Assembly: GCA_037446375.1 (NCBI GenBank)
Contig: JBBIIS010000005.1
Location: forward strand, 1 to 48,991
Direction: 5' to 3'
Length of the DNA stretch: 48,991 bases
DNA from: Bacteroidota bacterium
Lineage (GTDB): Bacteria > Bacteroidota > Bacteroidia > Bacteroidales > VadinHA17
Below, piece by piece: positions 16,980 to 23,532 of this stretch. How positions within the stretch are numbered: the first letter of the stretch is position 1; each line of letters opens with the position of its first letter. The position numbers and the translations under genes are program-made. A model generated the notes under the pieces. It saw only the letters and a program-made list of their open reading frames with translations, was not told where the DNA came from and ran no database searches.

Positions 16980-17540
16980 TCATTCCTGATTTCCCATCAG
17001 AATATCTTTTTTCTCCTTATAAAGCCTCATGCTTTCAACAACAATTTCATAGGCCTCTTCCCTCTGGACAAACTGTTCGACGGTGACGTTCTTGTGTTCT
17101 TCTTTCTTATAATCCTCAAAAAATCTTCGCAGTTCCACAAGTGTATGAGGAGGCAGTTCGCTCAGCTCATTTATATGGCTGACAGACATATCGTTCTTTG
17201 CAACGGCAATTATCTTGGCATCCTTTTCCTGTTCATCGATCATCTCCATGGCCCCTATCACCCTTGCTTCGACTATTGTCATCGGGTAGACATCAATTGA
17301 ACAAATCACCAGTATATCAAGAGGGTCATGATCGTCGCAGTATGTCTGGGGAATAAATCCGTAATTTGCCGGATAATGCACAGATGAGAAAAGCACCCTG
17401 TCAAGCTTTAGCAGCCCGGATGCCTTATCCATTTCGTACTTGCCTTTTGACCATTTCGGTATCTCAATTATTGCTTTAACAATTACCGGGGCTTCCTCTC
17501 CGGTGGGTATTGAATGCCAGGGATGTGCGCCGCTCTTCAT
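16980..17540 (-). CDS. ppa: Inorganic pyrophosphatase (family I)
   Basis: IEIPKWSKGKYE, YPANYGFIPQT and DGDPLD-like DHDPLDILV motifs. 186 aa. Confidence 0.9.
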   Translation of the reverse strand: MKSGAHPWHSIPTGEEAPVIVKAIIEIPKWSKGKYEMDKASGLLKLDRVLFSSVHYPANYGFIPQTYCDDHDPLDILVICSIDVYPMTIVEARVIGAMEMIDEQEKDAKIIAVAKNDMSVSHINELSELPPHTLVELRRFFEDYKKEEHKNVTVEQFVQREEAYEIVVESMRLYKEKKDILMGNQE

Positions 17541-17692: not shown

Positions 17693-18946
17693 TTATTTAT
17701 TTATAACGGGCATGATCAAAAGTGCTGCTGACAGACCCACAAGAACAACAACTGCGATCCAGCTTATAATATTATTTGTCGGCTTGTTTACATGTTCTCC
17801 CATGATTTTCTTATTGTTAATTATAAGGATCATGCTTACGAGTACAACAGGAAGAAGTATTCCGTTGAGTACCTGTGACCAGAGCGATATTTTTATAAGG
17901 GGTGCATTGGGGAAAAGGATGATTATCGCCGATATAACTATAATTGCAGTATAAAGAATGTAGAATTCCCTTGCTTCATCCCATTTTTTATCAATGCCAG
18001 CTTCAAAGCCAAATGCTTCGCAAACATAGAATGCGGTCGCAAGGGGAAGTATAGTTGCAGAAAACACAGATGCAATGAACAGGCCGAAAGCATAAACCTG
18101 CGACGCAAGCTGACCGGCCAGAGGCTTAAGAGCCAGTGCAGCATCTTTGGCTTCATTTATCTGCACTCCGTTTTCATGAAGTGTGGAAGCACATGCCACG
18201 ATAATGAAAAATGCGACAACTACTGTAGCAACACTGCCTATAACAATATCAGCAACTGTATACTTGTAATTCTTCATCTTCAGACCCTTCTCAATAACAG
18301 AGGACTGCATATAGAACTGCATCCAGGGTGCAATGGTAGTTCCTACCAGACCAATGACCATGGCAAGGCTCTGTGTATTCATTTCCATCTTTGGATGAAT
18401 AATAGACATTCCGATCTCTCCCCAATGAGGCTTTCCCATTAAGGCAGAAATGATATATGAAAGCAGTGATACACTGAAAATCAGAAAGATCCTTTCTGCA
18501 ATTTTATAGGTCCCTTTGACTACAAGTATCCAAACCATAAAACTGGCGATCGGTACGGCTATATATTTACTTATTCCAAAAACCTCCATACTTCCGGCAA
18601 CGCCTGCAAACTCGGTTGTCGTATTTCCGATATCTGCAAGCAGAAGTCCAATGAAAATAAAAAAAGTCACTTTTACCCCGGCGTTCTCCCGTATCAGGTC
18701 AGCAAGCCCTTTACCGGTCACTATACCCATACGTGCATTCATCTCCTGAATCACTATCAGAACTATAAATGCCGGGATAAGTGTCCATAGAAGTCCGTAG
18801 CCATATATTGCACCGGCTACAGAATAAGTCGTAATACCTCCGGCGTCATTATCAACGCTTCCGGTAATTATCCCAGGACCAAGGATAGCAAAGAATATTG
18901 CCAGTTGCCTGAAGAATTTTTTAGCTACAAATTTATCTTTGAACAT
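17693..18946 (-). CDS. NRAMP(SLC11)-related divalent cation transporter with a non-canonical metal-binding site (NRMT-like, possible Mg2+ transporter)
   Basis: TM1 block LGPGIITGSVDNDAGGITTYS has D-A-G-G (18836-18847) where NRAMPs have D-P-G-N. TM6 block GTTIAPWMQFY has A-P-W where NRAMPs have M-P-H. Overall topology is NRAMP-like (417 aa). Confidence 0.8.
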   Translation of the reverse strand: MFKDKFVAKKFFRQLAIFFAILGPGIITGSVDNDAGGITTYSVAGAIYGYGLLWTLIPAFIVLIVIQEMNARMGIVTGKGLADLIRENAGVKVTFFIFIGLLLADIGNTTTEFAGVAGSMEVFGISKYIAVPIASFMVWILVVKGTYKIAERIFLIFSVSLLSYIISALMGKPHWGEIGMSIIHPKMEMNTQSLAMVIGLVGTTIAPWMQFYMQSSVIEKGLKMKNYKYTVADIVIGSVATVVVAFFIIVACASTLHENGVQINEAKDAALALKPLAGQLASQVYAFGLFIASVFSATILPLATAFYVCEAFGFEAGIDKKWDEAREFYILYTAIIVISAIIILFPNAPLIKISLWSQVLNGILLPVVLVSMILIINNKKIMGEHVNKPTNNIISWIAVVVLVGLSAALLIMPVINK

Positions 18947-18954
18947 AATTTATC

Positions 18955-20232
18955 CTATTTTCTTTTCCTGGTCCTTCTCTTATTGTTGAGGTCTTCAACC
19001 ACATCATCAACTACGACCATTCCCTCAAGATGATTTCTATGGTCAACTACCGGGACAGCAAGCAGATTATATTTTGAAACTATTTCAGCTATATCATCAA
19101 TATCCTGCTCGTCATAAAGAAAGACTGGTTCGTTTTTCATTATTTTTTCAAGCGTGGTACCGGGGCTTGAAATTACAAGGTCCCTCAGTGTAAAAGAACC
19201 AATCAGCTCCTCGTCAGAATCCGTCACAAATAGATTGTAAAGTTCGGCCTGTTCAGGCTTTTTATCCCTCAGTTCGCGGAGTATATCGTCGACAGTCCTT
19301 GATGGATGATATGACAGATAATCTGTTGTCATAAGACTTCCTACCATATCATCTTCATACTCCAGAAGTTCCCGTACCTCCTTGGATGACTCGGCCTCCA
19401 TCTCCTTCAAAAGCATCTCAGCCTTATCGTCTTCGAGTTCATCAAGAATATCTGCGACCTCATCGGCAGGCATCTTTTCAAGCACATCGGCTGCCTTCTC
19501 TACCGGAAGGTTTTCCACAATATGCACCTGGGCATGCGATTCAAGTTCCTCAAGAACGTCAGCAGCTTTCTCCTCATCGAGAGATGAGAAAATTGACATA
19601 CTTGATTTTTTTCCAAGATCCTCCAGTATGTCTGCAATGTCTGAAGGATGAAGTGTATGAAGCTTTGAATAGCTTTTTGAAAGCTTTATATTAAAATTAG
19701 AAAAATCGATCGCCTGAACATCTTCCCATAAAATAAACTTTGCCGGGATGGTGGCATTCAGGAGGCCAAGAAGCCTTTTCATTATTATTGACACCCCCAA
19801 CCTTCTGAGCAATCCTTCGATCCCGATGTCAACCGCAAGCGGGAAAGTTCCCTGGGATAGCATTACAAGCCTCACATCATTTACACGAACGAGCTTACGA
19901 CCGTTCATGTCAACTATCTGCTTATCCAGCATATTTTCGACAAGAAGCAATCCATTTAGCACGTCCTCTTCGGGGAGAGCTGCAAGTTCCTTGCATGTCA
20001 CTCCAAGCCTTTCCCTCTCCTTCAGAACCGTGAAATGCTGAAAAGAATAGAAGCCCGTCTCTTTACCGGTCTTCAGCTTAACACCGGTAACTACCTGGCG
20101 ACCTGAATCATTTGTACTACCGGGAATGGAATTGATAAGAATATCTTTTATGATACCAACAGCATCACCGTCAATATCAAATGCTTCTTTACCAATAATT
20201 CCGCTCAGGTAAAAAGTTGTATAAGCAGTCAT
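18955..20232 (-). CDS. Soluble PRC-barrel-like + MgtE N-terminal domain + CBS-pair protein, with no membrane domain
   Basis: Acidic helical MgtE_N-like repeats (DIADILEDL, AADVLEELE, AADVLEKMPADEVADILDELEDD), followed by a CBS pair (VGSLMTTD...; LLAVPVVDHRNHLEGMVVVDDV). No hydrophobic segments. ATG preceded by AAAGGAGG. Confidence 0.75.
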   Translation of the reverse strand: MTAYTTFYLSGIIGKEAFDIDGDAVGIIKDILINSIPGSTNDSGRQVVTGVKLKTGKETGFYSFQHFTVLKERERLGVTCKELAALPEEDVLNGLLLVENMLDKQIVDMNGRKLVRVNDVRLVMLSQGTFPLAVDIGIEGLLRRLGVSIIMKRLLGLLNATIPAKFILWEDVQAIDFSNFNIKLSKSYSKLHTLHPSDIADILEDLGKKSSMSIFSSLDEEKAADVLEELESHAQVHIVENLPVEKAADVLEKMPADEVADILDELEDDKAEMLLKEMEAESSKEVRELLEYEDDMVGSLMTTDYLSYHPSRTVDDILRELRDKKPEQAELYNLFVTDSDEELIGSFTLRDLVISSPGTTLEKIMKNEPVFLYDEQDIDDIAEIVSKYNLLAVPVVDHRNHLEGMVVVDDVVEDLNNKRRTRKRK

Positions 20233-20237
20233 TTAAA

Positions 20238-20264
20238 CCTCCTTTCTTTCGATACGGAAGGAGG
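20238..20264 (-). promoter_or_regulatory. SD-sequestering hairpin in the leader of the MgtE_N/CBS-NRAMP operon
   Basis: Minus-strand RNA CCUCCUU-(13 nt)-AAGGAGG forms a perfect 7-bp stem. The 3' arm is the Shine-Dalgarno sequence, 5 nt before the ATG at 20232. Confidence 0.5.
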
Positions 20265-20361
20265 CGCGTTTATGGTACGGGCAACCCTTCAGTATCTGGG
20301 TTAAAATAAAATATTCGCAGGGCCGTCGTCCATCTGTACTGTTAATTCTTGATTTGCGTGC

Positions 20362-20369
20362 CAAAAATA
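20362..20369 (-). promoter_or_regulatory. Candidate -7 box (TATTTTTG) for the MgtE_N/CBS-NRAMP operon
   Basis: RC of caaaaata is TATTTTTG. It implies a leader of about 120 nt. Confidence 0.3.
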
Positions 20370-20595
20370 AGTTTCGATTCTTTACTTTCCAAAAAAGCCG
20401 GAGATTTTTTTGAAACTAAGTTGAATTATTTTTTACCACCAGTCGCTTCCCTGATATTGAGTGGTTTGTTCCATGCTATTTTAGCGTATGAGCCAGGCAG
20501 CGGGAAATGCACCCACGCCGAAGTACCGGTACGTCCCTCCTTTGGTTAAGTAGAGGAAAGTCATAAGCCCTCTGTATTCTGAAAAGAGAATCAGT

Positions 20596-21518: not shown

Positions 21519-22718
<1,200 letters not shown>

Positions 22719-22722
22719 TAAT

Positions 22723-23532
22723 ATGAAGAAAGTAATACTTATCACCGGTGTTTCAACAGGATTCGGCAAAGAGACAGCTTCACTTCTTGCTGAAAGAGGT
22801 CATTCTGTCTATGGTACAATAAGAAATCCCATCGAAACCGATCCAAAGGTTAATATCCTTAAAATGGATCTTACAAATGAGGAATCAATAAAAGCAGCGG
22901 TCGAAACTATAATAAGCAAAGAGGGCCGCATAGACGTCCTGATAAATAATGCCGGCATGCATATCGGCGGACCAGCTGAGAATTCTCCGATGGATCACGT
23001 AAAACTTATAATGGATACTAATTTCCTCGGACTCGTCAGAGTTACAAGATCAGTCCTTCCCTATATGAGAAAAGAACAATCCGGAACAATAATCAATTTC
23101 AGTTCCATAGGAGGATTGATGGGACTTCCGTTCCAGCCATATTATTCTGCAGCAAAATTTGCAATAGAAGGTTTTTCGGAAGCACTAAGGATAGAGCTTT
23201 TGCAGTTCAATATCAAAGTTGTGGTGATAAATCCAGGCGATTTCAATACAAACAACACAAACAACAGGAGGAGGTTCCTTGCTCCGACTAATGAGAATGA
23301 TCCATACTACAAAAACTTCCAGAGCGCCCTTGCAAGTATGGAAAAGGATGAAACGAACGGATGGAAGCCCGTCGTCCTCGCAAGAAAACTTGTAAAGATC
23401 GCAGAGTGCAAAAATCCTTCAGGCAGATATAAGATCGGATCATTCATTCAAAGGATCTCAGTAACTGTCAAAGGACTTGTCTCTGCAAAAACATGGGCAA
23501 ATATCCTCGCAATGTTTTACAACATTAAGTAA
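22723..23532 (+). CDS. Short-chain dehydrogenase/reductase (classical SDR)
   Basis: TGVSTGFG cofactor motif, NNAG, and the catalytic YSAAK. The ATG at 22723 (MKKVILITG) is preferred over the longer track ORF that overlaps the upstream gene. Confidence 0.85.
   Translation: MKKVILITGVSTGFGKETASLLAERGHSVYGTIRNPIETDPKVNILKMDLTNEESIKAAVETIISKEGRIDVLINNAGMHIGGPAENSPMDHVKLIMDTNFLGLVRVTRSVLPYMRKEQSGTIINFSSIGGLMGLPFQPYYSAAKFAIEGFSEALRIELLQFNIKVVVINPGDFNTNNTNNRRRFLAPTNENDPYYKNFQSALASMEKDETNGWKPVVLARKLVKIAECKNPSGRYKIGSFIQRISVTVKGLVSAKTWANILAMFYNIK

Follow-up and report, generated by a model that had tools for sequence, protein, structure and literature searches.

A Bacteroidales nrmT operon pairs an NRMT-type transporter with an MgtE-like partner protein without pore domain and follows a candidate leader peptide

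We analysed a stretch of 48,991 nucleotides (nt) from a Bacteroidota bacterium of the order Bacteroidales (GenBank assembly GCA_037446375.1, contig JBBIIS010000005.1, positions 1 to 48,991), referred to as the window, and within it a pair of minus-strand genes together with the leader that precedes them. The upstream gene (18955..20232, -) encodes a soluble protein of 425 amino acids (aa), here called the partner, in which profile, PDB-sequence and structure-model matches identify a putatively tandem PRC-barrel region, an MgtE_N domain and a CBS pair. The downstream gene (17693..18946, -), nrmT, is assigned by profile and PDB-sequence matches to the NRMT clade of NRAMP-related transporters and encodes 417 aa. 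The two open reading frames (ORFs) are in different reading frames and separated by an 8-nt gap (18947-18954). The coordinates, the shared strand, the length of the partner and the spacing agree with an initial annotation of this DNA that had been made from the letters alone. Both genes can be identified with near certainty, and the pair is a Bacteroidales copy of a widespread nrmT operon. The closest protein relatives bear names of Bacteroidales or Bacteroidia.

The transporter has the NRAMP (LeuT-type) fold, the Pfam profile Nramp (PF01566) being matched with E=2e-96 over positions 1-356 of 357. In a PDB sequence search its residues 9-415 align with EleNRMT (7qia) at E=5.8e-111 and 374 bits, compared with 1e-25 and at most 93 bits for the best MntH. 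The alignment to 7qia places the metal-site motif of transmembrane helix 1 (TM1) at D34-A-G-G37 (18836..18847, -), which equals D55-A-G-G58 of EleNRMT, and the TM6 motif at G202-T-T-I-A-P-W208 (18323..18343, -), which contains the counterparts of EleNRMT T224, A227 and W229. In TM1 the Asp of the D-P-G-N motif is kept and its Asn is replaced by Gly; in TM6 Ala is replaced by Thr (T203) and Met by Ala (A206), giving the T-x-x-A of the NRMTs. A constant offset of 21 between the two numberings holds for all equivalent residues (D55=D34, G58=G37, T224=T203, A227=A206, W229=W208, E133=E112 and Q379=Q358), which include the helix 3 glutamate and the helix 10 glutamine. The initial annotation had read D-A-G-G at exactly this position and I-A-P-W (I205-A-P-W208) in TM6 and had linked these changes with the NRMTs; both the distance to any MntH and the identical binding-site hallmarks support this assignment.

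In EleNRMT from Eggerthella lenta the transport of hydrated Mg2+ and of Mn2+ is not coupled to protons, and T224 is required for Mg2+ transport (PMC8806188). Judged by its residues, the window transporter carries a metal site of the EleNRMT type. With EleNRMT and CA_C0685 it shares the fold, the D-A-G-G and T-x-x-A-P-W motifs and the loss of both proton-path histidines in helix 6b (W208 and M213 here, W229 and N234 in EleNRMT). It differs from them in its Bacteroidales host, in having Met instead of Asn at the second histidine position and in the missing M-box. Uncoupled transport of Mg2+ is known only from EleNRMT and the C. acetobutylicum proteins. A search of 1.84 billion representative proteins yielded 789 clusters at E<=1e-30, whose full-length representatives vary on the theme D-x-G-G / T-T-x-A/T/S-P-W/Y.

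In the partner, Pfam profiles match PRC at residues 6-34 (E=9.5e-6), MgtE_N at residues 194-295 (E=1.6e-26) and CBS in two stretches up to residue 414 (E=7e-17). The helical MgtE_N domain as delimited by Pfam and the PDB alignment comprises residues ~188-295 (19348..19671, -), and the CBS pair, for which a model superposition was used in addition, residues ~297-414 (18991..19344, -). Residues 191-416 align with the cytosolic domain of T. thermophilus MgtE (TtMgtE; 2yvy, E=6.6e-33 in a PDB sequence search), and the full-length AlphaFold2 (AF2) model (predicted local distance difference test, pLDDT, 81.8) gives a target-normalised template modelling (TM) score of about 0.8 to MgtE cytosolic domains. 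The profile TIGR00400 (mgtE) is matched with 160 bits at a cut-off of 232.75. Because this match is limited to profile positions 19-252 of 450, the partner is a protein without pore domain, as the initial annotation had proposed in describing it as the sensing parts of MgtE. Moreover, since the five-helix membrane domain (TIGR00400 ~253-450) is unmatched, the score lies under the cut-off and the protein ends 11 residues past the CBS pair, it is not an MgtE channel. Compared with the cytosolic domain of TtMgtE (2YVY/2ZY9), the partner has the same N domain and CBS pair at ~30% identity, whereas the continuation of the plug helix and the transmembrane domain are missing and a PRC-barrel extension is added. 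The position at which the MgtE plug helix runs on into the membrane domain is taken in the partner by the helix of a basic C-terminal tail (…LNNKRRTRKRK; 18958..18990, -; alignment, AF2 helix 408-424). Such basic tails recur in distant orthologues across phyla.

The initial annotation had assigned two PRC-barrel-like modules to the N-terminus. This was right for module 1 (residues ~5-80; 19993..20220, -), which is a clear PRC barrel: PF05239 is found in 27/28 orthologues with a best E of 2.2e-8, and AF2 and Foldseek agree. Module 2 (residues ~94-170; 19723..19953, -) has a PRC-barrel match in just 7/28 orthologues (best E=0.0013), a weak similarity that confirms the claim only in part. A profile-profile comparison of both modules (hhalign) gives a probability of 74% and E=2.9e-5. 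In the AF2 model of residues 1-185 (pLDDT 76.7, predicted TM score, pTM, 0.70) module 2 forms a beta unit followed by two helices. With this model Foldseek finds the archaeal PRC-barrel proteins CdpB1/CdpB2 first (8qzo, 138-166 columns, E=4e-4), followed by reaction-centre H subunits, MTH1859 and RimM, all of them PRC-barrel proteins. CdpB1 and CdpB2 act in cell division, where their PRC barrels are protein-protein adaptors; they share 9-12% identity with the partner, the resemblance is at fold level only, and the biology is unrelated. Module 2 is best described as a divergent relative of module 1 and a putative second PRC barrel, the N-terminal 185 residues forming a tandem beta unit.

The best-conserved stretch of the whole partner lies in module 2 and surpasses the MgtE-like part in conservation. 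Its motif D103-x-Q105..R116-x-N118-D119..D135..G140-x-x-R143-R144 (19801-19926, -) was read from the invariant columns, and D103, Q105, R116, N118, D119, D135, G140, R143 and R144 are invariant in 28 sequences of many phyla. Going by this conservation, the stretch would be the likeliest docking surface. No open-access paper joining the terms 'PRC-barrel' and 'MgtE' was found.

For the MgtE-like part we compared ligand positions. The Mg2+ ligands of TtMgtE were taken from PMC5882242, whose four isoleucine nuclear magnetic resonance (NMR) probes served to check the numbering, and the ATP ligands from PMC5529423. At the Mg4 site D91 and D247 of TtMgtE correspond to D257 and D410 of the partner, kept in 25/28 and 61/61 sequences, respectively. 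At Mg6, D95 corresponds to D261 (kept in 26/28), and at Mg7, E59 corresponds to D225, where D or E is found in 24/28. The equivalents of D214 and E216 vary among partners. According to this alignment, the partner keeps the acidic residues that form the MgtE sites Mg4, Mg6 and Mg7.

To survey the pairing, 80 loci from species-representative genomes were collected starting from ten NRMT sequences, and their six-frame ORFs were searched with the window partner split into a PRC half and an MgtE_N-CBS half. In 73 of the 80 loci a same-strand ORF directly upstream of nrmT matches both halves within one ORF. Seven loci have no partner, and since four of these (L002, L033, L058, L060) end before upstream DNA, the usable count is 73/76. 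A survey of co-occurrence had been proposed in the initial annotation as a check of the coupling, and the two genes proved to stand together in nearly every usable locus. The paired loci come from more than ten phyla, archaea included; they comprise Bacteroidota, Ignavibacteriota, Omnitrophota, Bacillota, Spirochaetota, Syntrophales, Nitrospirota and Acidobacteriota as well as a Methanobacterium and the metagenome-assembled genome of a Nanoarchaeota. The genes are co-oriented with gaps of mostly -4 to +20 nt, and the tandem PRC N-terminus is present on all 73 partners (73/73). The pairing is real and ancient. In a wider search more than 4,800 homologues of the partner were scored; among those listed almost all have 409-440 aa, the outliers being one of 454 aa and one of 542 aa, and no membrane domain was found in partner homologues. 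An exact look-up of the window partner on public contigs returned no record. Two metagenome proteins (P0210, P0233) contain CBS and Nramp domains within one ORF. Since both are incomplete and could stem from errors in gene calling, they were given no weight as natural fusions of partner and transporter.

The initial annotation knew of no characterisation of the coupling. The implied novelty does not hold, as the gene neighbourhood and the idea of feedback are already contained in Shin et al. 2014, who described a gene for an 'MgtE N-terminal cytoplasmic domain' conserved next to nrmT and M-box riboswitches on many such operons, and who speculated about a role in 'cytoplasmic feedback regulation' or metal chaperone activity (PMC4072509). 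The 'MgtE-like fragment' genes of that study (Acp2976 and the split pair of C. acetobutylicum) resemble the window partner in lying directly upstream on the same strand, in having MgtE_N and CBS domains and in the feedback role proposed for them. In contrast, the tandem PRC-barrel N-terminus of ~185 residues and its invariant motif were not found discussed there. No later paper characterising the partner was found in the open-access literature. The pairing itself has been known since 2014, and the window adds one more member and a broad survey.

Studying the regions upstream of the operon reveals a difference between Bacillota and Bacteroidota. Ten Bacillota loci (L024, L037, L041, L045, L048, L050, L051, L055, L057, L071) possess an M-box (ykoK) riboswitch (RF00380, 91-151 bits) upstream of the orthologous operon. 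In the window, however, neither an M-box nor another Rfam family was found at gathering score or at E<=1, and none of 16 Bacteroidota loci has an M-box. Where Bacillota have the M-box, Bacteroidota have a leader made of recurring blocks: TTTG, TAnnTTTG, ATGGACGA, a hairpin and a long hairpin of CUUCCU type with AAGGAGG before the start. A covariance model of it, built on nine sequences, finds 26 Bacteroidota loci including the window and no other phylum.

In the window, TTTG (20390..20393, -) is a candidate -33 element of a Bacteroidota-type promoter and lies 20 nt upstream of TATTTTTG (20362..20369, -), a candidate -7 element (TAnnTTTG) read from sequence and alignment; both follow what we take to be the Bacteroidota promoter consensus. 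TTTGG is invariant over ten aligned Bacteroidales leaders. Also invariant is ATGGACGA, about 100-120 nt upstream of the partner start codon, which in 28/28 Bacteroidota loci opens a short upstream ORF (uORF), M-D-[D/E]-x-P-A, of 9-19 codons. In the window this candidate leader peptide (20301..20333, -) is MDDGPANILF*, encoded by ATG GAC GAC GGC CCT GCG AAT ATT TTA TTT TAA. The uORF pattern has this one match in the window, where 0.06 are expected by chance. Over the 28 loci, which for these statistics were picked without regard to the leader, minority bases in codons 2-6 amount to 11 at first, 15 at second and 43 at third codon positions, as in GAC/GAT/GAA/GAG, GGC/GGG/GGA and CCT/CCG. The excess at third positions points to coding constraint.

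Two hairpins follow. P2 (AACCC..GGGTT; 20283..20302, -; folding and covariance alignment) begins in the stop codon of the uORF. The second, with strands GCCTCCTT..AAGGAGGT (20237..20265, -), buries a Shine-Dalgarno-like AGGAGG (20238-20243) located 5 nt before the partner start. Nearly every leader forms this sequestering hairpin when folded at minimum energy, and RNAalifold returns it as the consensus of nine close sequences; its GGAG has a pairing probability of 0.88, compared with 0.70 in middle-shuffled controls (46/55 leaders, p=3e-8). On MAFFT alignments of 28 leaders RNAalifold recovered almost nothing, since the variable hairpins misalign, and per-sequence folding, shuffles and a covariance model were used for this reason. 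Taken as a whole, the leader shows no unusual stability (z = -0.41). The AGGAGG is strong and conserved across the Bacteroidota loci. Bacteroidota are commonly regarded as not depending on Shine-Dalgarno pairing, and in this leader AGGAGG may mainly provide a strand for the hairpin.

A modest hint that occupancy of the uORF, as by a ribosome, would open the main start region comes from constrained folding: with the first 30 nt of the uORF blocked, the predicted accessibility of the main start rises from 0.33 to 0.41 (39/55 leaders, p=4e-4). Blocking the stop region of the uORF gave no rise in the same calculation, and a search by eye for an anti-sequestor formed by the 3' strand of P2 yielded no consistent complementarity. 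Some observations weigh against such a switch. The covariance alignment, in which 81% of cells pair compared with 73% when shuffled and 44-56% when slid, was itself fitted to the model; this applies equally to the sequestering hairpin (87% of cells, 6/11 pairs changing on both sides) and to P2 (67%, 2/5 pairs), for which it is weak support. A long-range helix in which the uORF start would pair with the segment preceding the sequestering hairpin was rejected as marginal (0.51 versus 0.44 in shuffles, p=0.01). Finally, we infer the Mg2+ state that would open the hairpin from thermodynamic folding.

The leader could instead act as a structured RNA, for instance as a riboswitch or by binding a protein, in which case the 'uORF' would be an untranslated coincidence. 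In many minimum-energy folds ATGGACGA can indeed pair with a downstream segment, yet the long-range helix barely exceeds shuffles. An in-frame stop inside 9-19 codons is expected by chance in AT-rich sequence, and past codon 6 it is nucleotides (the CUGAUAUAG loop) and not the peptide that are conserved; codons 2-6, however, vary strongly at third positions and the ATG is invariant. Furthermore, the uORF lies 25-30 nt from the -7 box and comes before any other ORF of the transcript, and no Rfam family matches. We consider this explanation rather unlikely.

The candidate leader peptide is not restricted to the nrmT operon. A scan of metagenome contigs for the exact pattern ATGGACGANGGNCCTGCG, which by design fixes the first six uORF codons, gave at least 120 stretches, of which those in GC-rich coding sequence are chance matches. 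Among the matches listed, the AT-rich ones with a short uORF are followed by partner and nrmT in at least 33 cases, and five precede other genes. At L142 (1344, +) and L199 (-) the leader stands before a magnesium-translocating P-type ATPase of the MgtA type (NF011702, 561 bits on the first 400 residues), and at L101 (1084, +), L186 (-) and L190 (-) before CorA (PF01544, E down to 3e-51, GMN motif). All five have a TAnnTTTG box 25-30 nt upstream of the uORF. In L142 and L199 the sequestering hairpin is retained together with the opening codons of the partner gene, which suggests capture of the leader by recombination. In the CorA leaders a second small ORF (MN[K/T]K...) was seen after a hairpin. 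A uORF common to three unrelated families of Mg2+ importers is what would be expected of a Mg2+-responsive control element.

The nearest known arrangement is that of enterobacterial mgtL, in which an EPDP stretch directly behind the first Met makes the ribosome unstable and translation abort, to a greater extent when Mg2+ is low, so that mgtA is switched on (bioRxiv 10.1101/2021.02.02.429294). Both are short first ORFs in the leader of a Mg2+ transporter gene, both have acidic and proline residues directly after Met (MEPDPT in mgtL, MD[D/E]xPA in the Bacteroidota uORF), and both have alternative RNA structures downstream. However, there is no sequence homology, the phylum is another one, a start-sequestering hairpin takes the place of the Rho-dependent attenuator, and the Bacteroidota leader serves three transporter families; its Mg2+ response would follow by analogy. 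A paper linking mgtL-like leaders to Bacteroidota or describing this uORF was not found in the open-access literature, and the leader peptide may be new.

The explanation that fits best is an nrmT operon in which the partner is a detachable Mg2+ sensor and brake and in which expression is in addition controlled by the leader; we give it an even chance of being right. As a Mg2+ carrier that is uncoupled and powered by the membrane potential, an NRMT would require a brake or shut-off, like the channels MgtE and CorA. The partner would probably be a detachable cytoplasmic Mg2+ sensor of the MgtE type, whose N and CBS domains would clamp together at high internal Mg2+ as they do in MgtE. Its contact with the transporter might be made by the conserved PRC-like module 2, by the basic C-terminal helix or by both, and once clamped and docked it would block the inward-facing carrier or lock it. 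The second layer would be expression, by the M-box in Bacillota and by the leader peptide with the start-burying hairpin in Bacteroidota. At low Mg2+ translation of the leader would, by analogy with mgtL, abort or pause more often and the hairpin would open. For gating of the transporter by the partner in trans, taken separately, the chances appear roughly balanced. More tentatively, and with somewhat less than an even chance, we propose that a shared mgtL-like M-D-D/E-x-P-A leader controls the Mg2+ importers of Bacteroidota (nrmT operon, MgtA-type and CorA) in place of the M-box, together with a partner that is a detachable gate docking via its PRC-like module.

Several points speak against the partner as a Mg2+-sensing brake. 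No direct evidence of contact between partner and transporter was found. L055, L064 and L076 have upstream DNA and no partner, and at L055 the M-box stands directly before nrmT. CA_C0685 and CA_C3329 of C. acetobutylicum complement without the partner (PMC4072509), and EleNRMT was reconstituted alone (PMC8806188). Co-expression of A. capsulatum Acp2976 with Acp2977 gave no added Mg2+ rescue, and Acp2977, which rescues Mn2+ uptake, looked like a Mn2+ transporter (PMC4072509). Nevertheless, this co-expression is no test of gating, because rescue was scored and not inhibition or over-accumulation. Within the partner, Mg5, one of the TtMgtE sites, is lost (D226 is N389, and the equivalent of D250 is variable). 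R187 and D188 of the ATP ligands are kept in the window partner, whereas the other three of the five side chains are changed (Y170 to N, N203 to K, F227 to L). Because of these replacements ATP sensing by its CBS pair is doubtful, and with most ligands changed we dropped it as unsupported. As the full-length AF2 model has a pTM of just 0.50, the arrangement of the domains is not fixed either.

The partner could also be a positive factor, either a metallochaperone or a subunit that tunes affinity, Mg2+/Mn2+ selectivity or stability of the carrier. The conserved acidic sites would suit such a role, as would PRC barrels, which are protein-protein adaptors in CdpB1/CdpB2, and the gene spacing suggests translational coupling and perhaps a fixed stoichiometry. 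'Metal chaperone activity' is moreover among the alternatives named by Shin et al. (PMC4072509). On the other hand, the transporters are fully active without the partner, rescue is no better on co-expression and the homologous MgtE module is an inhibitory Mg2+ sensor, which makes a positive factor unlikely.

Another possibility is that Mn2+ or another divalent cation is the main substrate of the pair in this organism, that the partner senses this ion and that the Mg2+ label has been over-generalised from two homologues. Acp2977, which has a partner adjacent, fully rescued a Mn2+-uptake mutant and a Mg2+ mutant only at millimolar Mg2+ (PMC4072509), EleNRMT transports Mn2+ too (PMC8806188), and the window is without M-box. 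But the metal site of the window transporter is exactly that of EleNRMT, down to T203, the residue on which Mg2+ transport depends. The M-boxes on orthologues that are 65-76% identical, and the occurrence of the window's leader type on MgtA-type and CorA genes, tie the operon to Mg2+ as the initial annotation had supposed. A system mainly for Mn2+ is thus distinctly unlikely. That the two genes merely share a transcript while the partner regulates something else is very improbable: three NRMT loci are partnerless, but bacterial and archaeal phyla alike keep the pair (73/76 loci), always in one gene order and with the genes overlapping or a short distance apart, the uniform architecture of ~420 aa recurs in over 4,800 homologues, and other neighbours such as the inorganic pyrophosphatase gene (ppa) are not conserved (4/80).

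In the window ppa is found at 16980-17540 (-), 152 nt downstream of nrmT. The four related loci in which it is adjacent all belong to close relatives, so this is probably local synteny outside the system, and a functional link with the pair was rejected. On the other side of the operon there is a pair of genes for sphingolipid synthesis, consisting of a CFB-type serine palmitoyltransferase at 21534-22718 (+; NF047600, 694.6 bits, above cut-off) and a short-chain dehydrogenase/reductase (SDR) similar to 3-ketodihydrosphingosine reductase at 22663-23532 (+; 320.7 bits, under the cut-off of 400). The start of the latter is probably further downstream, because its listed ORF overlaps the serine palmitoyltransferase ORF by 56 nt.

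Gating of an uncoupled NRAMP carrier by the partner in trans, if true, would show that the MgtE sensor is a regulatory module that can be carried over from one transport fold to an unrelated one. A near-obligatory partner with its D-x-Q / R-x-N-D / G-x-x-R-R motif and three kept Mg2+ sites offers concrete mutants, which makes this role testable. Confirmation of the leader peptide would add an independent second example of Mg2+ sensing through translation, in a phylum with unusual translation initiation, and the uORF would provide a sequence tag with which Mg2+-regulated genes could be found in Bacteroidota.

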